Shown here: positions 2,399-64,000 of the stretch, piece by piece | Numbering within the stretch: position 1 is the stretch's first letter | Layout: each line of letters opens with the position of its first letter | NCBI GenBank assembly: GCA_041394725.1 | Contig: JAWKHR010000034.1 | Span: 3,410-67,409 of the forward strand | Reading direction: 5' to 3' | DNA length: 64,000 bases | From: Vicinamibacterales bacterium | Lineage (GTDB): Bacteria > Acidobacteriota > Vicinamibacteria > Vicinamibacterales > SCN-69-37 | Translations under genes and position numbers: made by a program | Notes under the pieces: generated by a model | The model's input: only the letters and a program-made list of their open reading frames with translations | Database searches by the model: none | Told to the model about the DNA's origin: nothing

Positions 2399-2602
2399 GA
2401 ATCCTCCGGCACGGGGGATCCGTGCAAGGACCGTTCCCCGTCGTGGACCGACCGGACCCGCGCTTCCAGCCGTGAAGACCGCCATTTTTCCTGACCCGAT
2501 GCGCCGAATTCCCCGCCGTCCCCGAGGTCGGCGCGACGGGCGAATCCCGATTGCGGGACCGACCGCCAGCGACCACGCCGAGGGCCGGGCCGGGCGGACC
2601 GA

Positions 2603-24811: not shown

Positions 24812-25396
24812 TCAGGACGACGGGGGCGGCTGCCCGAGCTGGGCGAACAGCCATGTGCGCGCCTTGATCCAGTCGCGCCGGACGGTCCGGTCCGTGACGC
24901 CGAGCGCCTGCGCGACGTCCTCGTCGGTCATGCCGCCGAAGAAGCGGCACTCGACGAGACGCGCCAGCCGCTCGTCCTCGGCGGCCAGGCGGCCGAGCGC
25001 CTGGTCCACGGCCAGGATGAGGTCGGCCTGCGCGTCCACCGAGAGGTGCCGTTCGTCGAGCTCGACCGGCGTCCGGTCGCCACCGCGTTTGCGGGCGCCG
25101 CGGGCCCGCGCGGCATCGACGAGGACCGTGCGCATGACCCGGGCCGCGTACGCGTAGAAGTGCGCGCGATCCTCGAACCGCGCCTCGCGCTGGTCCACCA
25201 GCCGCAGGTAGGCCTCGTGGATCAGGACGGTCGTGGTCAGCGTCCGGCCCGCGGGCTGGCCGGCGAGTTGCCGCCGCGCCAGGCGCCGGAGCTCCTGGTA
25301 GACGAGCGGGAAGATCTCGTCGAGCGCCGCGCGGTCGCCCGCGGCGGACCGCTGCAGGATGCGCGTGACGTGACCGGGGGGCGGCGGCGTGGTCAT
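24812..25396 (-). CDS. ECF-type RNA polymerase sigma factor (kinase-associated TIGR02999-like group)
   Basis: Trimmed to ATG 25396. VTRILQRSAAGDRAALDEIFPLVYQELRRLARRQL...TTVLIHEAYLRL...RLVECRFFGGMTDEDVAQALGVTDRTVRRDWIKARTWL. Confidence 0.85.
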   Translation of the reverse strand: MTTPPPPGHVTRILQRSAAGDRAALDEIFPLVYQELRRLARRQLAGQPAGRTLTTTVLIHEAYLRLVDQREARFEDRAHFYAYAARVMRTVLVDAARARGARKRGGDRTPVELDERHLSVDAQADLILAVDQALGRLAAEDERLARLVECRFFGGMTDEDVAQALGVTDRTVRRDWIKARTWLFAQLGQPPPSS

Positions 25397-25467
25397 GATC
25401 GGATCGGGGGCCCCCGCTATGATAGGCGCTCCCCCACCCGCTGCGCGACGCACGCGACGGAGGCGAC

Positions 25468-46598: not shown

Positions 46599-49136
46599 TT
46601 AGGACCCGCAGAGTTCCCCGAGCCGCGCCGGGGCACTCGGTCGCATGGTTCGCGCCAGATCCGGCGCCGTCCCCGCGACGCGGTCCCACGCGTCGAGGCC
46701 GGCGCGGACCTCGCGGCACCCGGCCGCGCGCGTCTCCGAACGACGCCAGAGCGACTGCCCCATCGAGATGCGCGCGGAAGCGACCTGGCCGGCCACGAAG
46801 AACTGGTCCGGCGCCGCGCGGAGAATCGTCTCGCCCGCCGCGATCCCGTCGCGCAGCCGTCCGACGCCGGCCTCGTCCTGCCCGTCGCGGAGCAGCATCC
46901 GCCCGAGTGCCAGGTTGGTGAGCATCACGCCGATCCGGTTGCCCTGATCACTCGGCGCCTCGTCGCCGAGCGCGCCGATCGTCGCGGCCGCCCTGGTGAG
47001 CGCGTCGATCGCCTCGGGCCGCCGGCCGAGTGTCTCGAGCGCCTCGGCCTGCGTCGTCAGGATCATCGTCAGCGTCTGGCGATAGCGGGGGTTCGCCGGA
47101 TCGACGCGGAGGAGTTCGCCGGTCCAGGCCCGAGCGTCGGTGGCGACGCGCAGCGCCTCGCCGGCGCCGCGCGCGCGCAGGAGGGCCGTGGCGTAGTCGG
47201 GCGCGATGCGCGCGACCCGGGCGAGCGCGACGGCATCCGCGGGGGCCGCGTCGAGCTCGCGGCGCGCGAGGTCGAAGGCGCGCGCCAGCGTGCTCCGCGC
47301 CTCGTCGGGCGGGCTGGCGGATGCCTGCACGTAGCCGAGCTGGTGGAGCGCGGTCGCGAGGCGCGCGCCACGGCCCGGCCTCGACGCCGGCGCGGACTCG
47401 GCCAGCGCGACGGCGACCCGCGCGTGCTCGACCGCGCCGGGCAGGTCGCCCGTCACCGCCGCGAACCGGCTCAGCTCGATCCGGACGTGCGCCAGCTCGT
47501 CCACGTCCTCCGGCGCGCCGCCGGCGGCCACCGCCGTCTGGATGTCGAGGGCGCGGCGGTAGCTCTCGCGGGCGCCGGCGATGTCGCCGAGGTTCGACAC
47601 GCCCCCGCCGCCGAGGATCGCGCCCATCCGCAGGTAGGCGGCCGCCAGCTCGCGCTGCAGGCCGCGATCGTCGCGGGCCTCGCGGCTCAGGCCGTCGAGG
47701 TACTCGAGGCCGCGCTCGACGACCAGCCGGCGCGCGGGCAGCGAGCCGGGCAGGTCGGCGATCGCGTCGTGGAACTCGAAGAGGAACGCGTTGGCCATGC
47801 GCCGCACGTCGCCGAACCGGCGCTCGGCGTCGGCGCGCGCCCGCTGCGCGGCCCGCGCCTGGACGACGGCCACGGCCGCGGTCACGACGAGCGCGCCGAT
47901 CGCGATCGCCACGGCGGCCGAGGCCACCCAGTGGCGGCGGAGGAACGTCGCGGCACGGTACCGCGCCGTGTCGGGCGCGGCGAGCACCGGCCGGCCGTCG
48001 AGGTACCGCGCGAGGTCGTCGGCCAGCTCGGCCGCCGAGCGGTAGCGCCGCGCGGGCGACTTGCGCAGCGCCTTGAGCACGATGCGATCGAGGTCGCGGC
48101 GGATGCCGGGCACCGGCGGCGGCGCCCCGGCGTCCTGGCGCACCGCCTGCCCCGGCGGCGTGGGCGCCTGCTCGCGGATGGCCTGGATCCAGTCGGCTTC
48201 GGTCCGCGGCTCCGGCTGGTACGGCCCGCGGCGCGCGAGCAGCCGATACAGGAGCTGCCCGAGCCCGTAGATGTCGGCGGCCACCGTCACCGGCTCGCCC
48301 GTCACCTGCTCGGGACTCGCGCTCTCGAACGTCAACGCCCGCCACGTCGTCCGCGCGCGCGCCTCGGCCGGGTCGGCGCCGGGATCGGGATCGACCAGCG
48401 TGGCGATGCCGAAATCGAGGAGCTTCGGCACGCCGTCGGCCGTCACCAGCACGTTGCCCGGCTTGATGTCGCGATGGATGACCAGGTGCTGGTGCGCGTG
48501 GTGCACGGCGCCGCAGAGCGCGCGGACCAGCTCGATCCGGGCCGGCAGGTCGAGCCCCGCGCGGTCGCAGAAGGCGTCGATCGGCAGGCCCTCGACGTAC
48601 TCCATCACGACGTAGGGCTGGCCGTCGGGCGTCGTGCCGCCGTCGAGCAGCCGCGCGATGTTGGGATGGTCGAGCACCGCGAGAATCTGGCGTTCCTGCC
48701 GCAGCCGCGCGACCAGCGTGGCGGACGCCAGGCCCGCGTCCACCAGCTTGATGGCGACCTGCTGATCGAACTCGCCGTCCGACCGCGCGGCGAGGTACAC
48801 CCGCCCCATGCCGCCGCGGCCGATCTCCCGGACGATGCGGTACGGCCCGAGACGCGTGCCGGGCGACAGCGCGGCGTCGGGGTCGGCCGGCTCGGCCGCG
48901 CCGGCCCGGGCAGCCGCGGCGGCCGCGGCCGCCAGCGAAGGATCGGCCAGTGCCAGCGCCGGAACCTCGTAGAGGTCGGCCGCCGCGTGCGCGGCGGCGA
49001 CGAGCGCGTCCACCTCGCCACGCAGCGCGGCGTCGGGTCCGCACGCGGCGGCGAGGAACGCGTCGCGCGCGCTCACCTCCAGCTCCAGCGCCTCACCGGC
49101 GAGGTGCTTGATTCGCTGCCACTCGTCGCGCGTCAA
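46599..49136 (-). CDS. Ser/Thr protein kinase with TM segment and TPR-like sensor region
   Basis: 845 aa. GRGGMGRVYLA, VAIKLV, HRDIKPGNVLV, DFGIATLV. TM segment AAVAIAIGALVVTAAVAVV. Lies directly downstream of the ECF sigma gene. Confidence 0.9.
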   Translation of the reverse strand: MTRDEWQRIKHLAGEALELEVSARDAFLAAACGPDAALRGEVDALVAAAHAAADLYEVPALALADPSLAAAAAAAARAGAAEPADPDAALSPGTRLGPYRIVREIGRGGMGRVYLAARSDGEFDQQVAIKLVDAGLASATLVARLRQERQILAVLDHPNIARLLDGGTTPDGQPYVVMEYVEGLPIDAFCDRAGLDLPARIELVRALCGAVHHAHQHLVIHRDIKPGNVLVTADGVPKLLDFGIATLVDPDPGADPAEARARTTWRALTFESASPEQVTGEPVTVAADIYGLGQLLYRLLARRGPYQPEPRTEADWIQAIREQAPTPPGQAVRQDAGAPPPVPGIRRDLDRIVLKALRKSPARRYRSAAELADDLARYLDGRPVLAAPDTARYRAATFLRRHWVASAAVAIAIGALVVTAAVAVVQARAAQRARADAERRFGDVRRMANAFLFEFHDAIADLPGSLPARRLVVERGLEYLDGLSREARDDRGLQRELAAAYLRMGAILGGGGVSNLGDIAGARESYRRALDIQTAVAAGGAPEDVDELAHVRIELSRFAAVTGDLPGAVEHARVAVALAESAPASRPGRGARLATALHQLGYVQASASPPDEARSTLARAFDLARRELDAAPADAVALARVARIAPDYATALLRARGAGEALRVATDARAWTGELLRVDPANPRYRQTLTMILTTQAEALETLGRRPEAIDALTRAAATIGALGDEAPSDQGNRIGVMLTNLALGRMLLRDGQDEAGVGRLRDGIAAGETILRAAPDQFFVAGQVASARISMGQSLWRRSETRAAGCREVRAGLDAWDRVAGTAPDLARTMRPSAPARLGELCGS

Positions 49137-49169
49137 CGGCGTCGCGCCCCCGTGTGATCCTGTGGCGCC

Positions 49170-49772
49170 TCAGGGTTCCGGCTCGCCGGCGTCCCCTGCG
49201 AGTTCGCGGTGCAGCCAGCCCTTCGCCAGGGCCCACTCGCGCTTGACCGTGCCGGTCGAGACGCCGAGCGCCGCCGCGGTCTCCTCGATCGTCAGGCCGC
49301 CGAAGAACCGCAGCTCGACGAGCCGGCCTTGATCGGGGTCGAGCTGCTCGAGCCGGGTCAGCGCGCGGTCGAGCGCGAGCGTGTCCACCGCGTCGATCGC
49401 CTGGGGCTCCACCACCGACGCGGCCTCGTCCAGGCCGACGTGCACCTGCCGGCCGCCGCGCCGCTGCCGGCCCTCGCGCCGCGCGTGGTCCACCAGGATG
49501 CGCCGCATCATCTGCGCCGCGATCGCGAAGAAGTGCCCGCGATCCTGCCAGTCCACGTTCCGCTGTCCGACCAGCCGGAGGTAGGCCTCGTGCACGACGA
49601 CGGTCGTCTGCAGGCGCCCCTGGCGCCACTCGCGCGCGAGTTGTCGCGCGGCGAGCTGCCGGAGTTCCGCGTAGACGAGATCGATGACCCGATCGAGCGC
49701 CCCGCGATCGCCGGACTGCCATTCGCGGAGCAGCCGCGTGACGTCGGCGGTCGGCTCCACTGGGCGCTCCAT
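49170..49772 (-). CDS. ECF-type RNA polymerase sigma factor (kinase-associated group)
   Basis: 200 aa. VTRLLREWQSGDRGALDRVIDLVYAELRQLAARQL...VVHEAYLRLV...LVELRFFGGLTIEETAAALGVSTGTVKREWALAKGWL. Paralogous to the 24812..25396 gene. Confidence 0.9.
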   Translation of the reverse strand: MERPVEPTADVTRLLREWQSGDRGALDRVIDLVYAELRQLAARQLAREWRQGRLQTTVVVHEAYLRLVGQRNVDWQDRGHFFAIAAQMMRRILVDHARREGRQRRGGRQVHVGLDEAASVVEPQAIDAVDTLALDRALTRLEQLDPDQGRLVELRFFGGLTIEETAAALGVSTGTVKREWALAKGWLHRELAGDAGEPEP

Positions 49773-49835
49773 GGCTGGAGCGCCCAGTCTACTCCGGTCC
49801 GGCCGGCGCCCGTGACGGCACGCGGTCCGGTCGTT

Positions 49836-49883
49836 GCTGCGGCTGCAGCTGCGGCTGCGGCTGCGGCTGCGGCTGCGGCTGCG
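49836..49883. repeat. (GCTGCG)8 hexanucleotide microsatellite
   Basis: Eight contiguous units, the second being GCTGCA, read directly. It lies 64-111 nt upstream of the ECF sigma start codon. Confidence 0.95.
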
Positions 49884-49922
49884 ACCACGCTCGTGCCAGC
49901 GACCGCGACCGCGCCGGGACGA

Positions 49923-50418: not shown

Positions 50419-51282
50419 TCAGGCCGGCGGGTCGATGGAGCCCGCCGCACCCGTGGTCCCGGACGCATCCAACGCTCCGGGCGCGGCGACCCGGCGGTAG
50501 CAGCCCGGCGAGATCATCTCGGCGAACCCGTCGGCCACCAGCGCGCGGTTGGCGCGCCCGGCCTCGGGACGCGAGACGCCGACCACGCGGGCCAGCTCGC
50601 CGCGGACGGTCAGGTGCGCGCCCGTGAGAAAGCACCGCGCGATCTCGCGCAGCGCGGTCTCGCGGTCGAGCCGACGCCGCAACGCGTCCGGGAACCGCCC
50701 GACGCCGAGCGTCCACAGGTAGGTGAAGAACGGTTCGTAGACGACGTCGCTCGGGATGACGATCATCGCGGCCTGCAGCTCGTCGAGGGCCCTGGTGAAC
50801 GCCGCGCGATCCGTGACGCCCGACGCCTCGCGCAGGTCCTTCGTCGCCATCTCCCACTCGTGGCGCAGCGGGCGAAGAATCCGGCGCGCGGCGGCGCTCA
50901 GGCGCTTCGGTTCGTCGGCGCGGCGGACGCCCCACACCGCGTGGAAGTACGGCAGCATCCTCGGCGCGATGAACATCGCGCGTCCCCGGGCGAGCTTCGC
51001 GTAGTAGACCTTGCCGCGCCGGAGCACCGCGTCCTTGAGTCGCCAGGTGAGCGACGCCTCCGGGTCTTTCTGGACGTTGCGCGGCATGACCGCGTCGCGG
51101 CGCCCGCACACGGCCAGGTAGAGCGACGGCCCCGGCCGTCGCGCGTCGGCGAGACACCCGGCAAAGCCCACCCGTTCGACGAACGCCTCCGCGTCCGCCG
51201 GCGTGGCCACCTGCCGCGCGCCCTCGCGACACCAGGCCGCGTCACGCAGGTCCTCAATCTCGTCGGGCACGGGGCCGGGCAT
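50419..51282 (-). CDS. hypothetical protein, winged-helix-like (function unknown)
   Basis: 287 aa with protein-like composition ([29 protein letters not shown]...[21 protein letters not shown]). There is a vague resemblance to wHTH DNA-binding families, which I cannot place. Confidence 0.55.
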
Positions 51283-51403: not shown

Positions 51404-51526
51404 ATGCTCACCTCCGAAGTTCGCAAGGGCAGCGCGGAGCTGCTGATCCTGGGGGCGCTCGACGCGCGGCGGTGGCGGGCCTTGCGGGAGACCGTCGAGC
51501 ACCGCGACGCGCGCCTGCCCGGCTAG
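51404..51526 (+). pseudogene. PadR-family regulator remnant (first ~19 codons fused to repeat-derived tail)
   Basis: MLTSEVRKGSAELLILGALD is a typical PadR N-terminus. From 51460 the sequence is the 650-bp repeat (ARRWRALRETVEHRDARLPG*), identical to the tail of the gene ending at 57092. Confidence 0.6.
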
Positions 51527-52113
51527 GTGCGGTCATCATCCCGGGAGGCACACATGCACCGTGCGACGCCGGCCGGCCGGGGAGTGGGCCTCCTGCTGAT
51601 CGTGCAGCTCGCGGGCCTGATCGTGCCGTTCGTGCTGCTGCGTCCGGTCACGGGCGCGCCGGTGGAGATCCTGGCGCACGCGGCGCCGTCCGAGGGCCTC
51701 ATCGGCGTGGCGCTCGGCCTTCTGCTCGCGAACGGCCTGCTGACGATCGGCATCAGCCTGGCCACGTTCGACGTCTTCCGTCGCGCGAGCGCCGCGGCCG
51801 CGCGCTGGGTGCTTGTGGCCGCCGTCCTCATGGTGGCGACGCAGGCGCTCGACGACGTGCAGGTGCTGTCGCTCGTGGCGCTCAGCCGGCAGGCCGTGGG
51901 CGCCGAGGCACCGGACACAATCCTTGCGCTCGCGGTGACGACGGCGGCGGCGCGGCGCTGGACGCACCTGACCGCGATCCTGGCCATCGACGGGTGGATC
52001 CTCGCGTTCTACGTGGCGCTCTTCCGCGGCACCGCTGTCCCGCGCGCGGTGCTGGCGTTCGGCACGCTGACGGCGCTGCTGCACCTCGCCGGCATCCCGG
52101 TGACCGCGGGCCT
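51460..52113 (+). repeat. dispersed direct repeat, copy A (~650 bp)
   Basis: Hand alignment to 57026..57669 gives roughly 98% identity, with about 6 substitutions and about 8 small length differences. Confidence 0.85.
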
Positions 52114-52168
52114 CTTCGCCGTGGTGGACAAGGTCCTGCTCGATCCGCTGCCGTTCGCCAACTTCTGA
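51554..52168 (+). CDS. DUF4386-like membrane protein (intact frame, non-native C-terminus)
   Basis: ATG 51554 after gggagg. MHRATPAGRGVGLLLIVQLAGLIVPFVLL... has 5-6 hydrophobic segments. After ~52113 it leaves the repeat and ends ...TAGLFAVVDKVLLDPLPFANF*. Confidence 0.7.
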   Translation: MHRATPAGRGVGLLLIVQLAGLIVPFVLLRPVTGAPVEILAHAAPSEGLIGVALGLLLANGLLTIGISLATFDVFRRASAAAARWVLVAAVLMVATQALDDVQVLSLVALSRQAVGAEAPDTILALAVTTAAARRWTHLTAILAIDGWILAFYVALFRGTAVPRAVLAFGTLTALLHLAGIPVTAGLFAVVDKVLLDPLPFANF

Positions 52169-52169
52169 T

Positions 52170-54380
52170 CGCCTCGTACATCGCGGGGTCGGCGCCGGGG
52201 TCGGACCTGCCGGACGAGTTCGGCGTGTCGGCCGAGTTCCTGGTCCGCGACACGAGGTCGACGCGCCTCGAGGGCCTGTCGACGTTCAACTGTTCACGTC
52301 CACGCTCCGCGTCGGCGATCGCGTCGAGCGGATCCGCACGCGTCGCAGCCGACCTCCACGCTCTTCACCACGCTCTGGCGCCACGCCCGTGCTCGGCCGC
52401 CTGCCGGTGGACGCCGATGACGACCACGTCGCGGTGATCAGCGACCGGCTCTGGCAGACCTGGTTCGACCGCGACCCGGCCGTCGTCGGGCGCGTATACA
52501 TCTCGGGACGCAACCGGGAGATTGTGGGCGTGGATGGCCCCGAGTTCCGGTTCCTGGACGACGGGACGCTGCCGTGGATGTCGAGCCGCATCCGCGAGGA
52601 GGGCCTGGTGCCGGGCCGGTTCGCATGTGGCTGGTGGCCGGATGGCGCCGGGCGCGGATCCGGCGCAGGTGGCCACGGGATCGCTGGACACGCTCGCGCG
52701 CTACCTGCCGGCGCGCTTCGGCGGCAGCGCCGCCTACGCGCACGTCATCGGACGGTTCCACGCGATCGTGCGTCCGCTCGACGAGGCGCTGCTCGGCGGC
52801 GTGGCGCGGCCGCTCTGGACTTCTTCGCGCGACGCGATCGTGTTCGTCATCGCTCGCGCGAACGTCGCGAACCTGTTCCTGGTGCGCGCCGAGACGCGCC
52901 AGCGCGACCTCGCCCTGCGCCGGGCCATCGGCGCCGGGCGCGGCCAGCTCGTCCGGCTGCAGCTGGCCGAGGCGTTGAAGTCGTGGCGGCTGCGGCGGGC
53001 GTGCTCGCCGTCGGCCTCGCGGCACTGACGCTGCCGGTCTTTCTGCGCGCGGCGCCGGCCGGGATCCCGCGGATCGAGGACGTCACGCTCACGGCGCGCA
53101 CTGTTCTTCACGCTCGGCGTGGCCGCGCTGGCCGCGCTCGCCCGTGGCCCGTCCTGGCGCTCCGCGCGTCGCGGCCTGACTTCGCGCGCCTGCGCGACGG
53201 CGCGCGGCACCACGCGCGCCAGGCGGTGGACGCGCTCACGGGCTGGTCGCCGCGCAGACCGCGCTCGCGCTCGTGCTGCTCATCGGGTCCGGCCTGCTGC
53301 TCCGCAGCTCTGGGCACTCCGCCACGTGGACCGGCTACGACACGCGCGACGTGTTCACGTTCCAGATCGTTCAGACCGCACCAACGACGGCCCGACCCAC
53401 GCGCGGTTCGACCTGGACTTCATGGATCGTTCGCGCGCGCTGCCCGGCGTCGAATGGCTGGTCTCGTGGAGAACGTGCCGCTGAACGAGTCGCCCGCCAC
53501 CGTGCGGCTGCGGTCCAAGGCCGGCCCGACGCGCCGGACGGGACGCTGGTCGGCCTGGATGCTCGCCGCGGGCGACTACTTCCAGACGATGCGCATCGAG
53601 CGCCTGGCCGGCCGGACGTTCGAGAACGCCGACCACCTCCTCGGGGCAGCCGCAGGTCATCCTCAGCCGGGATGGCGGCGCGCGCCCTGTTCCCGGACGG
53701 CGACGCGATCGGCCGGCGCGTGCAGATCGTCGGCCGACGACCTCGACACCGTCGTCGGCGTCGTCGACGACGTCCCGCAGAACGACTCGCGAGACGCCGG
53801 CCCCGCTGACCTACTACCCGCTCGTGGGCCCGACGCCGATGAGCTGCGCCATCTCCTCGCCGGCCTACGTGGTGCGGACGCCGCGCGCTCGACCATCGCC
53901 GGCGACATCCAAGCCGGCTGGCGCACGAGGTCGCGCCCGAGGCGCCGATGGCGCCTGCACGATGGACCAGCTCGCCGCGGACTCGATGGTCAGCGTCTCG
54001 TTCACCATGCTCACGCTCGGTGTCGCCGCGGGCCTCGCGCCGCTCGTCCTCGGCGCGGTCGGCCTCTACGGCGTCCTTTCCTACGTCGTCGCGCAGCGCA
54101 CGCGCGAGATCGGCGTGCGCCTGGCGCTCGGCGCGCGCGAACGGACGTGCGCTGGATGGTGGTCCTGCAGGGCGCGCGGGTCACCGGCATCGCGGTCGGC
54201 GTGATGGTCGCCGTCGCCGCCACGCGCGCGCTCGGCAGCCTCCTCTTCGACGTCGCGGCCGTCGACGCCGCGACGTTCGTCGCGATGTCCACCTCGGCGT
54301 TGTCGTCGGCCTGGTGGCCAGCTACGTGCCGGCCTGGCGCGCGTCCGCTGGTGATCCGATCGTGTCGCTGCGGGGAGTAG
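52170..54380 (+). pseudogene. ADOP/MacB-like permease lacking its 5' end and multiply frameshifted
   Basis: Family peptides are spread over three frames: HVAVISDRLWQTWFDRDPAVVGRVYISGRNREIVGV (52389 frame), IARANVANLFLVRAETRQRDLALRRAIGAGRGQLVRLQLAEAL (52522 frame), [26 protein letters not shown] (53824 frame), and the tail VASYVPAWRASAGDPIVSLRG (53948 frame). Confidence 0.75.
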
Positions 54381-54437
54381 CAGAGGGTCCCGAGGCCTGG
54401 AAGGTGGGGCGACCGTCCCGAGGGCCGGCGAGCCAGA

Positions 54438-55461
54438 ATGACGCGCGTGGCCCACGTGCGCCGCCTGGCCGTCGCCCTGACGCTGGCAACTGGCGTCGTG
54501 CTGCTCCTCAGATCGCAGCGGACCACGGGCGGGCTCGCCGTGCTCGGCCGCACGCACGCTGGCGGTCGTCGCCACGCTGGTGTTCGGGCTGTTCGAGCGG
54601 GTGCCGCGGCGTCTGCCGTCGTGGCTGTCGCGCTGGGTGCTGCAGGTCGTCGGCGCGTCGGCGTCGCGATCCCGGTGACCACGGTCACCCTGGTATTCCT
54701 CGGCTTTCGGCTCGACGCCGCTGTTCTGGCAGGTCACCACCCGCATGAACGGCTTCATGATGCTCACCTCTCGGGTCCTGATCGCGTTGTGGACGGCGCT
54801 GGCGGCCGATCCGCCAGAAGGACGCGTTCGCGCGCGACCAGGCGACGTTCGCGCTCGAGCGCAGCGAGCTCGAGCGACAGGCGCTACCGATGCCCGCCCG
54901 CACCTGCTGCAGGCGCAGGTCGCGCCGCACTTCCTGTTCAACACGCTCGCTAACGTCCAGGCCCTCGTCGACGCCGGGTCGCCGCAGGCGTCACGTTGCT
55001 GCGCGGCCTCACTGGGTACCTGCGCGTCGGTCCCCGCGATCAACGACCCGGCGGCGACGCTCGGCGCGAGGTCTGTTTCGTCACGGGCCTACCTCGACCT
55101 GATGCGGATGTGGATGCCCGACCGGCTGCATTACGAGCAGCACGTGGACGAGGCGGCGCTCTCGGTGAAGTGTCCGCCGGTCACACTGCTGACGTGCTGG
55201 TGGAGAACGCGGTGCGACACGGCATCGATCCCAGCGAGGACGGCGGCCGCATCGTCATCGACGTCCGGCGGCAGGGCAGCGCTGCGTGATCCGCGTCATG
55301 ACACCGGCGTCGTATTCGCGCCTCGCAGGCCTCTTTCGGCACCGGGGCCAGGCGATGCCCGCGAGCGGCTCCAGCTGATGTTCGGCGGCGAGTCTGCCCG
55401 CGTCGTCGCACAGGAATCGCGCGGCGTCTGCGCTGAGCTCGACGTCCCGGTGCGGGCCTGA
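54438..55461 (+). pseudogene. LytS/YehU-type sensor histidine kinase, frameshifted
   Basis: LLQAQVAPHFLFNTLANVQALVDAGSPQA (ORF 54745..55461) and LVENAVRHGIDPSEDGGRIVIDVRRQG (ORF 54996..55289) lie in different frames. The membrane N-terminus is in a third frame. Confidence 0.7.
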
Positions 55462-55471
55462 GGGCCGGGAG

Positions 55472-56259
55472 ATGTCACGACCGACCGCTCTCATCGCCGA
55501 CGACGAACCGCCCTGCGGACGCTGCGGCGCCAGCTCGCCGTCGCCTGGCCGGAACTCGACGTCGGGCCGAGGCGCGAAACTTGCCGAGGCGATCGCGCGG
55601 TTCGACGGTCAGCCCGCCGTCTGCTTCCTCGACATCCGGATGCCCGGCCTCTCCGGCCTGACGCGACGCACATCGGACGTCGCGCGCACATCGTGTTCGT
55701 CACGGCCTACGACCGCTACGCGATCCAGGCGTTTTGGCGGCTGGCGCTCGATTACCTGCTCAAGTTCGTCGAGCCTGCGCGGTCGCCGAGACCGTCGCGC
55801 GGCTGAAGGAACGCGTCGCCGCGGCCACGCCGGCGGTGAACACCGCCTCCGCGATCGAGGCGCTGGCCACCCGGCTCGCGGACCTTCACGCCGCGGAAGG
55901 CGCCGCCGGCGCGCCCCGGCGTGGCTGCGGATCCGCGCGCAGGCCGGGCAGACGCTCCGCCTGATTCCCGTGGATGACGTGGACTACCTTGCGGTCCGAC
56001 GCGAAATACACGGTGGTCGCGTGACGACGAGGACGGGACGGCCACAGGCGAGGCAGTGGCATGGACCGCGCTGAAGGACCTGGTGCCGCAGCTCGATCCG
56101 GCACGCTTCGCGCAGGTCCACCGCTCGGTCGTCGTCAACCTCGGCGCGATCAGCCACGTCACGCGGCAGGATCACGACCGGGCGGACATCCACCTGAAGC
56201 GGCGGCCGGACGTCCTGCCAGTCAGCCGGCGCTACCTCCACCTGTTCCGGCAGATGTAG
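55472..56259 (+). pseudogene. LytTR-family response regulator, frameshifted
   Basis: The receiver start MSRPTALIADDEP (55472) soon loses its frame. The LytTR end ALKDLVPQLDPARFAQVHRSVVVNLGAISHV...LPVSRRYLHLFRQM is in ORF 56056..56259. Confidence 0.75.
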
Positions 56260-56331
56260 CTCGTCGGCGCCTGGCGCCGTCCATGCCCCGATCGCCGCCG
56301 TCCGTCGCATGGCCCGCCGAATCGCCCGGCG

Positions 56332-57092
56332 TTGCGCCAGAGTGGCGGCATGCGCGACCCCGGCGCCTTCTGGCCGCAACGGGCCGCCCGGCTGAGCGGC
56401 CTCCTCTACGCGATCATCATCGCCGCCGGCATCCTCGCCGAGCTGGTCGTCCGCGAGCGGCTCCACGTGGCCGGCGACGCCGCGGCGACCGCCGATCGGA
56501 TCCTGGCGAACGAGGCGCTGTTCCGGTGGGGATTCGCGGCCGAGCTCTTCGCCGCGCTGTGCGTGATCCCGCTCATCTACCTGCTCTACGAACTGCTGAA
56601 GGACGCGAACCGGCACGTGGCCCGCACGGCCATCTTCTTCTCGCTGGTCGGCACGGCCGTGCAGGTCACCGCGCTGCTCGGCCACTTCGCGCCGCTCAGC
56701 CCGCTGAAGACGTCATGGCCGCCGGCCTGACGACTGACCACACCCGCGCCCTCACCGACGTGGCCCTCCGCCTGCAGAGCGTCGGCTACGCGATGGGGCT
56801 CGCGTTCTTCGGCGGGACGATGCTGTGCCGCGGGGCATTCGATCGTGCGCTCGGCGCTCCTGCTGCGGGTCATCGGGATCGCGCTGATGATCGAGGGCAT
56901 CGTGGTACGGCGCGAACAGCTTCACCGATTCCCGTCGCGCCGCCGTTCGCCAGGGCCGTGTTCCAGGTCCTGATGGTGACCGGCCTGGCGGAGCTGGCCC
57001 TGTGCGTCTGGCTGCTCGTGAGGCACGACGCGCGGCGGTGGCGGGCCTTGCGGGAGACCGTCGAGCACCGCGACGCGCGCCTGCCCGGCTAG
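56332..57092 (+). pseudogene. DUF4386-like membrane protein, frameshifted
   Basis: The N-terminal 130 aa (LLYAIIIAAGILAELVVRERL...ILANEALFRWGFAAELFAALCVIPLIYLLYELL) are in ORF 56332..56730. The remainder (VALRLQSVGYAMGLAFFGG...VTGLAELALCVWLLVRHD) is in the frame of ORF 56061..57092. Confidence 0.65.
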
Positions 57093-57669
57093 GTGCGGTC
57101 ATCATCCCGGGAGGCACACATGCACCGTGCGACGCCGGCCGGCCGGGAGTGGGCCTCCTTGCCGATCGTGCAGCTCGCGGGCCTGATCGTGCCGTTCGTG
57201 CTGCTGCGTCCGGTCACGGGCGCGCCGGTGGAGATCCTGCGCACGCGGCGCCGTCCGAGGGCCTCATCGGCGTGGCGCTCGGCTTCTGCTCGCGAACGGC
57301 CTGCTGACGATCGGCATCAGCCTGGCCACGTTCGACGTCTTCCGTCGCGTGAGCGCCGCGGCCGCGCGCTGGGTGCTTGTGGCCGCCGTCCTCATGGTGG
57401 CGACGCAGGCGCTCGACGACGCAGGTGCCGTCGCTCGTGGCGCTCAGCCGGCAGGCCGTGGGCGCCGAGGCACCGGACACAATCCTTGCGCTCGCGGTGA
57501 CGACGGCGGCGGCGCGGCGCTGGACGCACCCGACCGCGATCCTGGCCATCGACGGTGGATCCTCGTTCTACGTGGCGCTCTTCCGCGGCACCGCTGTCCC
57601 GCGCGCGGTGCTGGCGTTCGGCACGCTGACGGCGCTGCTGCACCCGGCCGGCATCCCGGTGCGCGGCCT
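57026..57669 (+). repeat. dispersed direct repeat, copy B
   Basis: See copy A. Copy B continues on both sides into contexts that look native for DUF4386 genes. Confidence 0.85.
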
Positions 57670-57790
57670 GCCGGGCTACGGCGCCATCGCCCGGATGGGG
57701 CCGCCGATGGCCCTCGGGCAGCTGGTGCTGGCGGCGTGGTTGATCTGGCGGGGTTCGGGGAGGGTGGGACCCGGCAGCCGGGTGACCACC
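57120..57790 (+). pseudogene. DUF4386-like membrane protein (repeat copy B), frameshifted; 3' end approximate
   Basis: It has the same start context as 51554 (gggaggcacacATG). The frame is lost repeatedly relative to copy A. The native-looking tail GYGAIARMGPPMALGQLVLAAWLIWRG is in ORF 57377..58636. Confidence 0.6.
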
Positions 57791-57904
57791 TGCGCGACCG
57801 GCGCGGGAGCCTCCCGTCCGTCCGCACCATTTTCCGCAGGCCACGTGAAGGCACGCTGCAGAGAGCCGCTGGAGCCTGACGGCGGCCCGCTCCAGGCCGC
57901 CGTC

Positions 57905-58572
57905 TCACCGTCCTGCCGCCCGGTCGCGCCGCGCCACGACGTCGAGCGTCACTTCCAGCGCGTCCTTCACGCGCACTGTGCCGAGCCCGGCGGTGACGGG
58001 CTCGATCCCGAAGTCCGTCTGCTTGAACCGGCACGTGCCGGTCAGGCGCAGGACGTCGCCGTCGACGGTCACCGGGCCCGTGACGTCGATCGATCGCGTC
58101 ACGCCATAGCCTCAGGTCGCCGGTCACGACGGCGTTCAGCGCCATCGGTGCCGGTGGTGGACGCGTCGTCCGGCGCCGCATCGGCCGGCCTCACATCGAC
58201 CGACGTCGAGTCGAACGAGATCATCGGATACCGCGCGACATCGAGGACCTCCGGACCGAGCATCGTCCGCTGCACCTCGGGTACGTCGTCGGGCGGCTCG
58301 CCTTCGGGATCGACGCGCAGGGCACCGGCCTCGAACGCCAGATGCACGACCGATCGCCCGGGCGCGTCGCGATCGAACGCGATCGTCCCCGACAGGCGTG
58401 GCGCGTGGATCTCGTGCGTGTGCCCGACAAAGCCAAACAGTCCGGTCTTCCCGACGAGGATCGTCACGTGGCTGGCCGCGGCGTCGATCGTCCAGGTTCC
58501 CATGGCCCGTGGCCCGGCGAAGATGGGGGCGACCAGAAGCGACGTGAACAGTGCGACGGAGCGCAGGGACAT
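57905..58572 (-). pseudogene. YceI-like periplasmic protein, frameshifted near 58100-58190
   Basis: The 5' part is ORF 58099..58572 (signal peptide, TWTIDAAASHVTILVGKTGLFGFVGHTHEI). The 3' part is ORF 57905..58102 (VTVDGDVLRLTGTCRFKQTDFGIEPV). The linking peptide ALNAVVTGDLRL sits in a third frame (ORF 57444..58181). Confidence 0.7.
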
Positions 58573-58742
58573 GAGGATCGAAGGTGCAAGACGCCTGCCA
58601 CGGCGGACGACGGCCCGTCGCCCGCCTCGCCGCTGACGACGACGGTGGGCGGCCGGCGGCGTCCATGGCGACGGACATCGAAGCTGCTCGGGGCGATGGC
58701 GGTGCGCGCTCGCGTGGAGGAGTGATCGTCGATCGAAGGGGC

Positions 58743-58819
58743 TGGCGCGCCCGGCAGGACTCGAACCTGCGACCCTCGGCTTAGAAGGCCGATGCTCTAT
58801 CCACCTGAGCTACGGGCGC
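58743..58819 (-). tRNA. tRNA-Arg (anticodon TCT), CCA encoded
   Basis: The reverse complement folds by hand into a cloverleaf: GCGCCCG-TA-GCTC-AGGTGGATA-GAGC-A-TCGGC-CTTCTAA-GCCGA-GGGTC-GCAGG-TTCGAGT-CCTGC-CGGGCGC-G-CCA. 77 nt. Confidence 0.9.
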
Positions 58820-58836
58820 GTGTGGGCATTGTACGA

Positions 58837-58867
58837 GGTCCTGAGGGTCCCCGGGCCCCGTTCGAAC
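58837..58867. repeat. copy of GGTCCTGAGG/GGGTCCC element with GTTCGAAC palindrome
   Basis: ggtcctgagggtccccgggccccgttcgaac, beginning 18 nt from the tRNA 5' end. Confidence 0.6.
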
Positions 58868-58895
58868 TTTCGCGCCGAATGCGGGATCATGACCC

Positions 58896-60545
58896 CATGC
58901 ACTCGAGCCTCGCCGAAGGGCGTGCGGCGTTCGCGCGGGAGGCGTGGGCGGAGGCGTACGCGCGGCTGGCGGAGGCCGACGGTGAGTCGCCGCTCGAGGC
59001 CGAGGATCTCGACCGGCTCGCCACGGCGGCGGTGCTCGTCGGACGCGAGGCCGAGGGGGCCGGCGCGCGGGCGCGCGCGTACCAGGCCTTCCTCGACCGC
59101 GGCGAGACGCGTCGCGCGGCACGAAGCGCCTTCTGGATGGCCTTCGCGCTGTTCGAGCGGCGCGGCCAGCAGGCGCAGGCCGGCGCGTGGATGACCCGCG
59201 CCAGACGCCTGCTCGACTCGACGCCCGGCGGCGCGACGCCGTGCGCCGAACAGGGCTTCCTGCTGTGCGCGGCCGGCCTGCAGATGATGGAGGCCGGCGA
59301 TCCCCACGGCGCGCAGGCGCACTTCGAACGCGCCGCGGCGATCGGCGCCGCCTGCGGCGATGCGGACGTCACCGCGCTCGCCCGCCAGGCCATCGGTCGC
59401 GGACTGATCCGCCAGGGCCGTGCGGCGGAGGGCTTCGCGCTCCTCGACGAAGCGATGCTCGGCGTGACGACGGGCGAAGTCGGCCCCCTCATGGCCGGCG
59501 TCGTCTACTGCAGCGTCATCAGCGCCTGCCACGACGCGTTCGACTGGCCTCGCGCGCAGGAGTGGACCAGCGCGCTCGCCGGGTGGTGCGACGCGCACCC
59601 GGACATGGTGCCGTTCCGCGGCGCCTGCCTGGTGCGCCGCTCGGAGGTGCTGCAGCTCCACGGCGACTGGCCGCACGCCCTCGACGAGGCGCGGCGGGCG
59701 TGCGACTGGCTGCGACGGCAGCCCGACCGGCCGGATCTCGGCCTCGCCCTCACGCAGCTCGCCGATCTGCACCGCCTGCGCGGCGATCTCGACGAAGCGG
59801 ACCGGACCTATCGGGCCGCGAGCCAGGCCGGCGCCCGCGTTCTGGCCGGCCTGCCCCTGCTGCGCCTCGCGCAGGGCGAAGCCGAGGCGGCGTGCGCCGC
59901 CGTCCGCCGGGCCCTCGAGGACACGCGCACGCCGCGCGCCCGCGCGCTGGTGCCGCTGCGCGTCGCCGTCGAGGTGCGGCTGCGGAGGGTGACGTCGCCG
60001 GCGCGCGCGAGGCGGTGCCGACGCGCTCGCCCGCTTCGCCGCCGAGGTGGACGCGCCCTACCTCCACGCGGCGGCCGCGACCGCCGCCGGCGCCGTCGCG
60101 CTCGAGACCGGAGACACGGGCGCCGCGCTCACCGCGCCCGAGACGCGCAGGCGCGCTGGGCCGACCTCGACGCGCCAGACGAGCTCGGCGCGTCCGCGCG
60201 CTCGTCGGCCGCGCCTGCCAGCGGATGGACGACCACGACGGCGCCGCCTCGAGTTCGACGCCGCGACCGAGATCTTCGAGCGCCTGGTCGCTGCACCCGA
60301 CAGACACGCGTCGCCGCGTGGGCCGCCGACGCCGCGCGCCCGCCGGACACCCGGGGCGACCTGACTGGCCGCGAACCGCCGAGGTCCTGCGTCTCGTGGC
60401 CACCGGGCGCACCAACCGGGCCATCGCCAGCCGACCTCGGCATCAGCGAGAAGACCGTCGCGCGGCACGTGAGCAACATTCGACAAGCTGACCTGTCCTC
60501 CCGACCGCCGCCACGGCCTACGCCTACGAGCACCGCCTCGTCTGA
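58896..60545 (+). pseudogene. LuxR-family regulator (TPR-like N-terminal region + C-terminal HTH), 3' third frameshifted
   Basis: ATG 58896 (MHSSLAEGRAAFAREAWAEAY...) is clean to about 59970. After that, AEVDAPYLHAAAATAAGAVALETGD (ORF 60047..60364), AEVLRLVATGRTNRAIA (ORF 59187..60491) and DLGISEKTVARHVSNI (ORF 58792..61779) lie in different frames. Confidence 0.75.
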
Positions 60546-60635
60546 GCGTGGGTCGAATTACCCATCCCCGCGCCTCCCCGCCTGCACAGTCCGGCCGATG
60601 CCTTCGGGCCCCCGGGTTCGCGACGATGAGGGCAG

Positions 60636-61779
60636 ATGGAGGGCCTCATGCACGACACCGGCATCACCCAGCGTATCGACACGGTCGTCATCGGCGGCGG
60701 ACAGGCGGAGTTCCTGGTCGGCTACCACCTGGCGCCGCGGCGTGCCGTTCGTGATGCTCGACGCCGCCGATCGGACGGCGACGCCTGGCGGCGGCGATGG
60801 GATTCGCTGCGCCTGTTCACGCCGGCGAAGTTCTCCGGCCCGGCTTCCCGTCTCTCGCCCCACCGAACTCGTTTCCCACGAAGGACGGAGATGGCCGACT
60901 ACCTCGAGGCCTACGCCCGCCGCTCGATTCGCCCGTCTGCTCCGCGACGCGCGTGGAACGGCTCGCGGCGCGGCGATCGCTTCCCTGGTCGTCACGGCCA
61001 CCGAGCAGCGCGACGCGGCGCGCACGTGGTCGTCGCGATGTCCGGCTACCAGCGGCCGAAGGTCCCGCCGTTCGCGCGTGAGCTCCGGCCGACATCGTCC
61101 AGATCCACTCGTCCGACTACTGGAGCCCGTCGGCGCTGCGCGCGGGCCGCGTGCTCGTCGTCGGCAGCAACTCGGGCGCGATCGCGAAGGAACTCGCACC
61201 GACACACGAGACGTGGATGGCCGGCCAGGACGTCGGCGAGATCCCGCACGACGTGGTTCGCCGGCTACGGCTCGCGCCCGTGCGGCTGACCCTGCGCGGC
61301 GTGTTCCACCGCGTCCCGACGGTCTCGACCCTGCTCGGGCGCCGCGTGCGCGCGAAGATGCTGCACGGCAGCGGCCTGCTCATCCGCACCAAGCGCCGGC
61401 ACCTCGCCGCCTCGCGCGCGTGACGATGGCGCCGCGCGTGGCGGGCGTCACGGACGGATGGCCGCGGCTCGCGGACGGCCGCGTGCTCGACGTCGCGAAC
61501 GTCGTCTGGTGCACCGGCTATCACCCGGGCTTCTCGTGGATCGACCTGCCGGTCTTCGACGCCGCCGGCGACCCGCGCCACCAGCGCGGCATCGTCCCCG
61601 GCGAGCCCGGGCTGTACTTCGTCGGCCTGCATTTTCTCTACGCGCTCTCGTCCGGGATGATCCACGGCGTGGGACGGGACGCGAGGCGGGTGGTGGAGCG
61701 CATCGTTGAGGGTCCTGAGGGTCCCAGGGCCCCAGGGTCCCAGGGTTCCAGGGTCCTCGAGGAACGGATGCGGGCGTAG
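60636..61779 (+). pseudogene. flavin-dependent (FMO/CzcO-like) NAD(P)/FAD oxidoreductase, frameshifted up to ~61420
   Basis: IDTVVIGGGQA (GxGxxG), GDAWRRRWDSLRLFTPAKFSG and MADYLEAYARR are in ORF 60636..61289. HVVVAMSGYQRPKVPPFAREL follows. The clean tail VVWCTGYHPGFSWIDLPVFD...GLYFVGLHFLYALSSGMIHGVGRDA is in ORF 58792..61779. The last ~20 codons are repeat-element sequence. Confidence 0.7.
61708..61762. repeat. copy of GGTCCTGAGG + GGGYCCCAG array element
   Basis: gagggtcctgagggtcccagggccccagggtcccagggttccagggtcctcgagg. It overlaps the 3' end of the FMO-like reading frame. Confidence 0.65.
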
Positions 61780-62976: not shown

Positions 62977-62997
62977 ATAGTCACAGTCTGTAACTAT
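62977..62997. promoter_or_regulatory. near-perfect 21-bp palindrome, candidate PadR autoregulatory operator
   Basis: ATAGTCACAGTCTGTAACTAT matches its own reverse complement at 18 of 21 positions. It overlaps the annotated PadR ATG (62996). Confidence 0.45.
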
Positions 62998-63388
62998 GAT
63001 CGGGCTCGTGCCCCGAGACCCCCAGGCGCTCCTCCCCCTCAAGCCGCTCGTGTTCCACCTCCTGGTCGCGCTGCTCGACGGCGAGCGGCACGGCTGGGCG
63101 CTGCTGCGGGCGGTCGAGGACCAGCCGGGGGCCGAGCGGCTCATGCCGGGCCAGCTCTACCGGCAGCTCGCCGCGATGCTCGACGAAGGGCTCATCGACG
63201 AGCGCGACACGCCCGGCGGCGGCCAGGCGACCGCGGAACGGGTGGGGCGCACGGGCGGCGCGGCCCCGCGGCGGTTCTTCCGCCTCACGCCGTTCGGCCG
63301 CGCGGTGACCCGCGCGGAAGCGCGGCGGCTCGAGGGCCTCGTCGCCGACACGCGCGTGCGCCGGCTGCTGTCGCGGAGGCGGTCGTGA
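62996..63388 (+). CDS. PadR family transcriptional regulator
   Basis: 130 aa. LKPLVFHLLVALLDGERHGWALLRAVE...MPGQLYRQLAAMLDEGLI...RRFFRLTPFGRAV. GTGA overlap with the downstream permease. The start could be slightly downstream. Confidence 0.85.
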   Translation: MIGLVPRDPQALLPLKPLVFHLLVALLDGERHGWALLRAVEDQPGAERLMPGQLYRQLAAMLDEGLIDERDTPGGGQATAERVGRTGGAAPRRFFRLTPFGRAVTRAEARRLEGLVADTRVRRLLSRRRS

Positions 63389-64000
63389 GCGCCGCGCCGG
63401 GCCGCGGCGAGCGCGGCGAGCGCGGCGAGCGCTTCTACCGCGGACTCCTCCGCGTCTTCCCGCCGGCCTTCCGCGCGCGCCACGCGGACGAGATGACCGC
63501 GGTGTTCCGGCGCCAGCGTGCGCGCGCCGCGGGGCGACCGCTCGCGATCGCGGCGCTCTGGGGCCGCGCCGTGCGCGACGCGGTGACGCAGGGCCTCGCG
63601 CTGCGCGCGGGCCGCACCGGCGTCACGGCCGGCCGGCGCGCGGGTCGCACCGGCGTCGCGACCGGCACCCCGGCGGGCGCCGGACGTCAGGGCGCATCGT
63701 GGCATCCGGTCGCCGACATCCGCGTCGCCGTGCGCGGGCTCCGCGCCGCGCCCGTGCCGACGCTCGTCGTCCTGGTCGCGCTCGGCCTCGGCCTGGGCGG
63801 CAACGCGGCGCTCGCGACCGTCGCGTACGACCTGCTCATCGACCCGCTCCCGTACCCGCACGCCGATCGCATCGTCCAGCCCTGGAAGATGCGGCCGTCG
63901 ATGCGCGGGCTGGCGCTCTCCCCGTCGGAATCCGACCTGGACCGCTGGCAGGACGCCCCGGGCATCGACACGCTCGTGCGGTTCGAGCCCGTGCGGGTCA
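63385..64000 (+). CDS. ADOP/MacB-like permease, 5' part (continues beyond window)
   Basis: Not in the ORF track because there is no stop. My translation from GTG 63385 stays open to 64000: VSAAPGRGERGERGERFYRGLLRVFPPAFRARHADEMTAVF...ADIRVAVRGLRAAPVPTLVVLVALGLGLGGNAALATVAYDLLIDPLPYPHADRIV. This is the typical prefix plus first TM of PadR-linked permeases. Confidence 0.75.
   Translation, partial: MSAAPGRGERGERGERFYRGLLRVFPPAFRARHADEMTAVFRRQRARAAGRPLAIAALWGRAVRDAVTQGLALRAGRTGVTAGRRAGRTGVATGTPAGAGRQGASWHPVADIRVAVRGLRAAPVPTLVVLVALGLGLGGNAALATVAYDLLIDPLPYPHADRIVQPWKMRPSMRGLALSPSESDLDRWQDAPGIDTLVRFEPVRV

Follow-up and report, generated by a model that had tools for sequence, protein, structure and literature searches.

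ADOP is the acidobacterial duplicated orphan permease, which carries MacB_PCD and FtsX twice, and in a PadR-ADOP module a complete PadR gene (PF03551) lies directly upstream of a MacB_PCD/FtsX permease. Long direct repeats are a different system, and one that is 98% identical over 640 bp suits RecA-mediated deletion. In bacterial pseudogenes, substitutions normally exceed indels severalfold. In metagenome-assembled genomes (MAGs), strain mixtures and haplotype-switch chimeras are common. The window analyzed here, a stretch of 64,000 nt, belongs to a contig of 70,146 bp in a Vicinamibacterales MAG from GenBank, of which all looked-up proteins were singletons. In this window a segment with a DUF4386 gene occurs twice, once between parts of a PadR gene and a permease gene. 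We suggest that the two copies, A and B, are one genomic locus written twice, a false duplication that was probably produced by a chimeric join in the MAG contig. The repeat is present in the record but is probably an artefact rather than biology.

Copy A (51460-52102, plus strand, 643 nt) was free of frameshifts, and copy B (57026-57661, plus strand, 636 nt) differed from it by seven indel events and six substituted bases. The alignment places them as direct repeats at an offset of 5566 nt with about 97.7% identity, which is far above chance. This confirms the direct repeats of about 98% identity, 5.57 kb apart, described in an earlier note on this DNA, with the ends trimmed to 52102 (A) and 57661 (B). 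The two copies share the final 20 codons and the stop (DARRWRALRETVEHRDARLPG*) of an upstream gene, DUF4386-1, the intergenic region with the ribosome-binding site (RBS) and most of the ORF of a second gene, DUF4386-2, of which copy A carries codons 1-192. The note had likewise read an upstream tail of 20 codons and stop, an RBS and a DUF4386 ORF at the opening of both copies, and the ORF is now assigned to PF14329.

Copy B sits in a native context, as had been claimed, because the repeat tail is continuous with DUF4386-1 and the ORF reaches a family-typical C-terminus. DUF4386-1 (56332-57092, plus strand, PF14329) has about three frameshifts, and the repeat begins with its final 20 codons. 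DUF4386-2 (57093-57879, plus strand, stop at 57877-57879) runs on beyond the repeat into the DUF4386-typical 'RG..GY...MG.PMAL....WLIWRG'. An extra frameshift is probable in a G-run near 57741-57745 of this gene, because the family consensus is 'KGFxE' and the 'WLIWRG' of copy B continues with 'FGEGG...' in another frame. Pfam was run on frame-corrected conceptual proteins, with a gathering threshold of 27.6 bits for PF14329. DUF4386-1 matched positions 2-209 of the 210 in the profile with 125 bits, and the product of copy B matched positions 15-207 with 29.4 bits. Like the DUF4386 membrane proteins, the ORFs of both copies match the family, and the reconstructed product of B and DUF4386-1 span the whole model.

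Both flanks of copy A are foreign. On the left is a PadR-family N-terminus of 19 codons (MLTSEVRKGSAELLILGAL; 51404-51460, plus strand), which starts at ATG 51404, ends at the left junction and is divergent from an AlkZ-related gene (50419-51282, minus strand). It shared 59% identity over 22 residues with the N-terminal end of a bona fide PadR protein at locus L111, and residues 1-22 of that PadR, used as a tblastn query, matched 51404-51469. The look-alikes at L111 and L095 match PF03551; the 19-codon piece has no Pfam match. The right flank is 'TAGLFAVVDKVLLDPLPFAN', the motif at the end of TM1 in an ADOP/MacB-type permease. This permease (MacB_PCD and FtsX; 52103-54380, plus strand) lacks everything from the N-terminus to the end of TM1 and lies in about 18 frame pieces. 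After frame correction it aligned over its full length, with 61% identity, to the intact 807-aa homologues P0078 and P0079, and it kept 269 of 309 near-invariant columns (87%). About 37 codons are missing relative to these closest homologues, and about 105-130 only if the permease was of the long-N-terminus type. The earlier description of A as spliced into PadR and followed by an N-truncated ADOP holds for the identity of both flanks, with 19 PadR codons, but its figure of about 100 missing codons is uncertain. The missing PadR/permease piece was searched for across the window and was not found elsewhere in it. For the native distance between PadR codon 19 and the permease junction, long-type PadR-ADOP pairs gave 605-660 nt, short-N-terminus homologues about 390 nt and the in-window paralogue about 735 nt. 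We considered an equal-length overwrite by A, a signature of overhang projection by overlap-layout assemblers or of window-wise polishing, and dropped it because these estimates were too spread.

The frame at copy A is open, as had been noted, but the ORF is chimeric. It extends over 51527-52168 on the plus strand, with DUF4386 sequence to 52102, then 21 codons of permease and a stop (52166-52168) that is the product of the first frameshift in the noisy sequence downstream. GenBank starts it at ATG 51554 and lists it as MEZ5318557, a 'DUF4386 family protein' of 204 aa; the protein is 100% identical to P0001. Pfam found DUF4386 on residues 21-196 with 44.3 bits (profile 3-180 of 210, same threshold). 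All 38 invariant columns of the family up to H186 are retained, and past 'LHLAGIPV' the product leaves the family consensus. It differs from the family in that the C-terminal helix ('MG.PMAL....WL..KGF') is absent and the ORF ends in permease sequence.

The differences between the copies are unlike evolutionary divergence, in which substitutions exceed indels and some changes are synonymous. All seven indels are expressed in B, as four one-base deletions, two two-base deletions and one insertion, and the majority fall within short homopolymers or dinucleotide runs. Indel events and substituted bases stand at about 1.2 to 1. All six substitutions are non-synonymous, five of them at codon position 2, and clean synonymous differences number zero. 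Four of the differences are T-to-C and turn Leu into Pro in B at Leu positions conserved in the DUF4386 family, a direction opposite to the usual GC-to-AT mutation bias. At family-conserved positions the ancestral state is that of copy A, and the changes in B destroy conserved residues. As a whole, the differences have the profile of sequencing or consensus errors. A general T-to-C (Leu-to-Pro) error signature was rejected, because the four events in B have no counterpart at the invariant positions of the permease.

Copy B lies in a zone of dense frameshifts of 9.3 kb (52103-61410), delimited by a GC3 phase plot, a codon-usage frame tracker and a 3' overrun test. The zone is densest at 52166-58145, contains a clean sub-block of 1.9 kb at 58146-60009 and is dense again at 60010-61410; 52 kb before it and 2.6 kb after it are clean. 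The tracker returned ordinary gene-length segments over 1-52165, then about 45 switches of frame between 52166 and 57745, or about one per 125 nt, and more up to 61410. This amounts to some 60 frameshifts over 9 kb of the zone, reaching about 8 per kb where they are densest, and the overrun medians were 266 nt in the zone versus 15 nt in clean sequence. Besides the permease and the DUF4386 genes, many frameshifts were found in a LytS-type sensor histidine kinase (His_kinase PF06580; 54438-55470, plus strand) and a LytTR-family response regulator (55472-56259, plus strand). A YceI-family gene (57905-58572, minus strand) is split by a frameshift near 58100-58145 and matches only positions 1-88 of the 150 in the Pfam YceI profile; in GenBank its N-terminal 157-aa part alone is annotated (MEZ5318566). 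The contrast drawn earlier between an intact A and a broken B does not stand as a property of B, since every gene across 52.1-61.4 kb is frameshifted, and the puzzle dissolves because B sits inside this zone. In the clean part of the window, an ankyrin-repeat gene near 29680 is apparently split by a sporadic frameshift, which would fit a sequencing platform prone to indels.

If the zone were a genuinely decaying pseudogene island, B would be a real pseudogene and A a functional rescue copy made by recombination, as the earlier note implied. The disruption of all of the roughly eight genes in the zone would fit this, as would the truncated products in the GenBank annotation, such as that of YceI. 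However, real pseudogenes with so many indels should show AT-biased substitutional erosion, and the frame-corrected GC1/2/3 values of the zone (0.728/0.509/0.941) cannot be distinguished from those of intact genes in the clean sequence (0.727/0.516/0.943). The ORFs are disrupted, but substitutional decay and loss of codon bias do not accompany the disruption. The ratio of indels to substitutions between A and B and the direction of the T-to-C changes also speak against decay, and the permease kept 87% of its near-invariant residues in spite of the load of frameshifts. The sharp edges of the zone and its frameshift-free sub-block fit a coverage-dependent consensus quality better than neutral decay. 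We consider a pseudogene island very improbable. The noise looks technical and not evolutionary, because GC3 is unchanged, the A/B differences are rich in indels and B has lost conserved residues. From the earlier reading of A as a product of recombination or gene conversion, we retain that A is a chimeric secondary copy and that B is native. The paradox of a functional product beside a decaying native gene falls away, since the noise consists of indels only and codon composition is unchanged.

The position at which the noise begins is informative. The sequence is clean to 52102 or slightly past it and then has about 8 frameshifts per kb, the first one lying near 52165, about 60 nt to the right of the right junction of A. 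Inside the 643 nt of A there are none, and at 8 frameshifts per kb the chance of 640 clean nt is about 0.6%. Because the zone starts within 60 nt of this junction, an assembly join is favoured over divergence of two genomic copies. A misassembly join, which the earlier note had placed last among its alternatives, is the best-supported explanation. The frame-corrected products of the zone, such as DUF4386-1 and the permease, are otherwise good members of their families.

We suggest that A would represent well-covered and well-polished consensus and that B would belong to about 9.3 kb of low-coverage, poorly polished sequence, with indel errors such as error-prone long reads leave behind. A majority haplotype would carry a deletion of 5.57 kb, which joins PadR codon 19 to the final 20 codons of DUF4386-1 and takes out what lies between them, namely the remaining PadR, the permease, LytS, LytTR and the bulk of DUF4386-1. 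A minority haplotype would retain the full PadR-permease-LytS/LytTR-DUF4386 locus. The assembler may have tracked the majority sequence across the deletion junction into DUF4386-2 and then switched into the minority path at the permease. The switch would lie at a non-homologous but locally similar point, as the right junction of A falls in a patch where 'LHLAGIPV-TAG' faces 'LGLAIGV-TAG' of the permease. The minority path would then cross the whole locus, with the minority DUF4386-2 as copy B, and polishing would repair only the stretches under abundant reads. From the contig we infer two haplotypes, low coverage in the noisy zone and the switch, and a switch at a non-homologous point would require a specific failure, for example overhang tolerance or end-to-end concatenation. 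The noise up to about 58145 and its return at 60010-61410 are not predicted by a simple model of a polished majority with one minority insert. Dense noise ending exactly at the right edge of B was also considered and rejected, since frameshifts also occur near 57742 and around 58112-58145.

Both junctions of copy A are in frame, for which the chance is about 1 in 9. This could be explained by a real rearrangement under selection, and it counts against a chimeric join. The contig may then be real, at least in a minority haplotype, and a 643-bp segment would have been copied into the PadR/permease boundary by illegitimate recombination or a gene-conversion-like event, in place of the remaining PadR codons and the permease start. 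The repeats would afterwards have deleted one repeat and the 4.9-kb spacer; the deletion would be the abundant haplotype whose reads polish A, and the noise would still be technical, owing to the low coverage of sequence without the deletion. There is local similarity at the right junction ('LAGIPV-TAG' and 'LAIGV-TAG'), the left one may share a 'D-A-R'/'E-P-R' microhomology with PadR, and the repeat would be a good substrate for RecA. A real duplication would account for a clean A beside a noisy spacer and B, and nothing in the sequence contradicts it. However, it requires two independent illegitimate junctions and a second event, compared with one biological event and one assembly error for a native locus with a single deletion, and it explains the match between the right junction of A and the quality boundary only indirectly. 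Since A and B show no true differences of the synonymous type, the duplication must also be very recent. We regard it as unlikely, although it deserves consideration.

The architecture of A, spacer and B was seen in no relative among 44 DUF4386 loci and 80 AlkZ-anchored loci, although no close relative of the source exists among these or elsewhere in the searched collections. The best matches had 54% identity for DUF4386, 61% for the permease and 87% for the AlkZ-related gene, the last without synteny. The 44 DUF4386 loci, from species-representative genomes, had DUF4386 alone in common. In the 80 AlkZ-anchored loci, which come from metagenomes, the neighbours varied, and the closest of these loci (L045, 87% identity) shared nothing on the PadR side. 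The repeats could recombine only in cells that really have the structure of the contig. It is quite doubtful that the contig is correct for a subpopulation, in which a 643-bp duplication would flank a 4.9-kb cassette of permease, LytS, LytTR and DUF4386-1, and recombination would drop this sensor-efflux cassette in part of the population. If it were, DUF4386-2 would come directly behind the PadR promoter, after an in-frame leader of 40 codons derived from PadR and DUF4386-1.

Both junctions of A might also be artefacts of another technical join, with no real deletion haplotype. A clean contig that ends in DUF4386-2 might have been concatenated end to end with a noisy read or contig that starts in the permease; in other variants a read was chimeric, or a hybrid scaffold received a misplaced 643-bp short-read contig. 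The quality boundary would be explained as in the chimeric join of two haplotypes, and the clean 58146-60009 between noisy blocks resembles accurate contigs with a gap fill of raw long reads. However, the left junction (51459/51460) lies entirely inside clean sequence with few shared bases only, which would be hard to obtain in k-mer or overlap assembly without supporting reads, and we consider such a join improbable.

The biological significance of the repeat is small, and under the preferred chimeric join of two haplotypes its value is practical. An ordinary deletion polymorphism of 5.6 kb among co-existing strains is all the real biology that is likely. If this explanation is true, MEZ5318557 is a DUF4386/permease chimera, and frameshift errors along about 9 kb make apparent pseudogenes of the permease gene, the LytS/LytTR two-component system, both DUF4386 genes, YceI and the genes for a LuxR regulator and a flavoprotein. 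Such stretches raise pseudogene counts and give spurious evidence of duplication and gene conversion in MAG-based comparative genomics.

Compared with known PadR-ADOP modules, the locus shares a PadR start divergent from its neighbour and a MacB_PCD/FtsX permease following in the same orientation; intact examples are L034, L111, L121, L095 and 62996-64000 of the window. Searching relatives for this module, as had been proposed earlier, revealed PadR followed by an ADOP permease at L095, L111 and L121, the only ones among the relatives with the divergent pair beside an AlkZ-related gene. The locus differs from these modules in that PadR is reduced to 19 codons and the permease is without its N-terminus, so that no complete PF03551 PadR stands directly upstream of the permease. 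The closest permease homologues, P0078 and P0079, are of the short-N-terminus type with no PadR upstream. As in RecA-dependent deletion between direct repeats of several hundred bp, a 4.9-kb cassette lies here between two repeats of about 640 bp that are 98% identical, and the process would yield the deletion haplotype that we propose. Unlike a segmental duplication in direct repeat, the parent structure here would need two illegitimate junctions. The locus differs from other assembly chimeras in that no homologous overlap underlies the join, and we place it in this class tentatively. It resembles false duplications and haplotype-switch chimeras in that one locus appears twice, a few kb apart, as a polished and an unpolished copy, that consensus quality changes at the junction, that short homopolymer indels dominate and that the source is a MAG from a mixed population.

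The direct repeat described in the earlier note is present in the record. By repeat finding and gapped alignment, copy A spans 51460-52102 (643 nt); copy B lies 5566 nt from it, at 57026-57661 (636 nt), and pairwise alignment gave about 97.7% identity. Each copy opens with the final 20 codons and the stop of an upstream ORF (DARRWRALRETVEHRDARLPG*), followed by a short spacer with GGAGG and then a DUF4386 ORF. Judged from the flanking sequences, copy B is in its native context and copy A is chimeric, with foreign flanks, as had been proposed. The tail in copy B comes from the preceding gene, DUF4386-1 (56332-57092), of which the frame-corrected product matched PF14329 over positions 2-209 of 210 (125 bits), and 3' of the repeat copy B runs on into a family-typical DUF4386 C-terminus. 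To the left of copy A, 19 codons (MLTSEVRKGSAELLILGAL, ATG at 51404) match the N-terminus (MLDRELKKGSAELIILSIL) of a verified PadR in a relative's locus, L111; this truncated PadR start is divergent from an AlkZ-related gene, an arrangement also found in a second relative's locus, L095. To the right, the DUF4386 alignment stops at '...LHLAGIPV' (52102) and the frame enters 'TAGLFAVVDKVLLDPLPFAN', the end of TM1 and start of the periplasmic domain of ADOP/MacB-type permeases (ADOP, Acidobacterial duplicated orphan permease). Both junctions of copy A are in frame.

P0078 and P0079 (807 aa, 61% identity), the nearest of the intact permeases, have the TM1-end motif at residues 38-57, and measured against them the permease at copy A lacks only about 37 codons. 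The loss of roughly 100 codons suggested previously holds for the long-N-terminus subtype only. An equal-length overwrite by copy A was rejected; natively, PadR codon 19 and the permease junction could be separated by anything between about 390 and about 735 nt, depending on permease subtype. At 52049-52162, DUF4386-2, the second DUF4386 gene of B's native locus, has a C-terminal helix ('AVLAFGTLTALLHLAGIPV') that resembles TM1 of ADOP permeases ('LMAVGTLGLAIGVNAG'), and tblastn permease alignments therefore extend into copy A by 54 nt. A spurious overlap, or else a true illegitimate recombination, could have started from this microhomology.

Reading frames were followed with a Viterbi tracker based on codon usage, for which the window itself served as training set. 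Long gene-like coding runs occupy 1-52165 in the GC3 phase plot, in agreement with the tracker, while the interval 52166-57745 has about 45 frame switches, or one in roughly 125 nt. More are found near 57742, near 58112-58145, where the YceI gene is split, and across 60010-61410; 58146-60009 is a sub-block free of frameshifts, and from 61411 to the window end the sequence is clean once more. Reading frames overran the 3' end of their segment by a median of 266 nt in the noisy zone, against 15 nt in the clean one. The noisy zone (52103-61410, 9.3 kb) starts about 60 nt or less from the right junction of copy A, and every gene in it is frameshifted: frame-corrected conceptual products were obtained for a MacB_PCD/FtsX permease, a LytS-type histidine kinase, a LytTR response regulator, DUF4386-1, DUF4386-2 (copy B) and a LuxR/GerE regulator, and the YceI gene (minus strand) and a flavoprotein-like gene are disrupted. 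Copy B is indeed broken, but because the whole 9.3 kb is affected, this state is no property of copy B itself.

The differences between the copies comprise 6 substituted bases and slightly more indel events (7): relative to A, B has six deletions (four of 1 nt, two of 2 nt) and an insertion of 1 nt. Most indels fall within short runs of a single base or dinucleotide. No clean synonymous change is found among the 6 substituted bases; four of these are T-to-C, turning a family-conserved Leu, retained in A, into Pro. The usual mutation bias of bacteria is GC-to-AT, which T-to-C opposes. After frame correction, GC at codon positions 1/2/3 was 0.728/0.509/0.941 in the noisy zone, compared to 0.727/0.516/0.943 in the 52-kb clean zone, so that codon-position GC gave no sign of substitutional erosion there despite about 8 frameshifts per kb. 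The frame-corrected permease can be aligned over its entire length at 61% identity and retains 269 of 309 columns near-invariant among 40 homologues. Together, these results argue against a biological origin of the noise, whose profile is that of a consensus with low coverage and poor polishing, made on an indel-prone platform, rather than that of a decaying island. Real decay of the zone into a pseudogene island, with one copy 'rescued', would account for the broken genes, but it is contradicted by the A/B differences, the unchanged codon-position GC and the conserved permease, and we regard it as highly improbable. In the clean zone, an ankyrin-repeat gene (28955-30320, minus strand) is apparently split near 29680 into two overlapping frames; the cause may be an isolated indel error or else a true frameshift, and the former would also point to indel-prone sequencing.

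We consider it probable that A and B are one locus, written twice through a chimeric join. The majority haplotype would lack 5.57 kb, starting at PadR codon 20 and stopping 20 codons short of the end of DUF4386-1, with the order AlkZ-related gene, PadR', tail, DUF4386-2 and onward, and the minority haplotype would keep PadR, permease, LytS, LytTR, DUF4386-1 and DUF4386-2. The contig would track polished majority sequence as far as DUF4386-2 (copy A), jump to minority sequence at the permease, cross the full locus and reach DUF4386-2 again (copy B). At the switch point there is local similarity only, 'LHLAGIPV-TAG' against 'LGLAIGV-TAG' of permease homologues. Such a join explains why A is clean and B noisy, why their underlying sequences are apparently identical save for noise, and why a quality boundary lies at the right junction of A. 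Strain mixtures are expected, since the source is a metagenome-assembled genome. A misassembly join, listed last among the earlier note's alternatives, thus becomes the likeliest explanation given the quality boundary and the error-type differences, and the recombination or gene conversion read there from A and B is unsupported, as the noise is zone-wide and technical in profile. It is conceivable, though rather unlikely, that the contig is correct for the minority haplotype, with a real 643-bp duplication and recombination between A and B giving the majority haplotype; the noise would still be technical. The two-haplotype join does not explain why the noise runs on for about 0.5 kb beyond B and returns in another block at 60.0-61.4 kb. 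A different technical origin, with both junctions of copy A artefactual, seems to us improbable. No close relative was found among the related genomes compared, and synteny was variable around both anchors, the DUF4386 loci and the AlkZ-related gene.

Read from ATG 51554, the ORF of copy A gives exactly the protein MEZ5318557 of GenBank ('MAG: DUF4386 family protein [Vicinamibacterales bacterium]'), a singleton encoded on a 70,146-bp contig; the nearby MEZ5318553, MEZ5318555 and MEZ5318566 are singletons too. In the noisy zone GenBank lists truncated products, e.g. the 157-aa YceI protein MEZ5318566. What follows above all is that MEZ5318557 and the annotations around it in this genome are best regarded as unreliable.

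Several other features of the window stand apart from the repeat. Two paralogous pairs of an ECF sigma factor (PF07638) and an adjoining Ser/Thr protein kinase with TPR repeats (24836-28374 and 46599-49772; kinases of 968 and 845 aa) lie in opposite orientation and are 72-77% similar in DNA (inverted repeats I1 and I2). A low-complexity, GC-rich run of GCN codons (49800-49890), poly-Ala in one frame, separates an ECF sigma gene from the ORF that follows. The coding region at 12805-13464 (plus strand) holds five copies of an 80-104-nt unit, spaced at 120/192/120/144 nt and encoding '...AVADGVVYVGS.D..LYALDA.TG...'; its predicted product looks like a PQQ/beta-propeller (BamB-like) repeat protein. 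At 62996-64000 (plus strand), a clean, intact PadR-like regulator precedes the N-terminus of a long-type ADOP permease cut by the window end; the pair is a paralogue, in the same genome, of the module that is disrupted at copy A. The permease at 5-2401 (minus strand) is intact and of the short-N-terminus ADOP/MacB type, without PadR upstream and followed by panB and panC, and it shares about 32-34% identity with the ADOP permeases of the loci compared.
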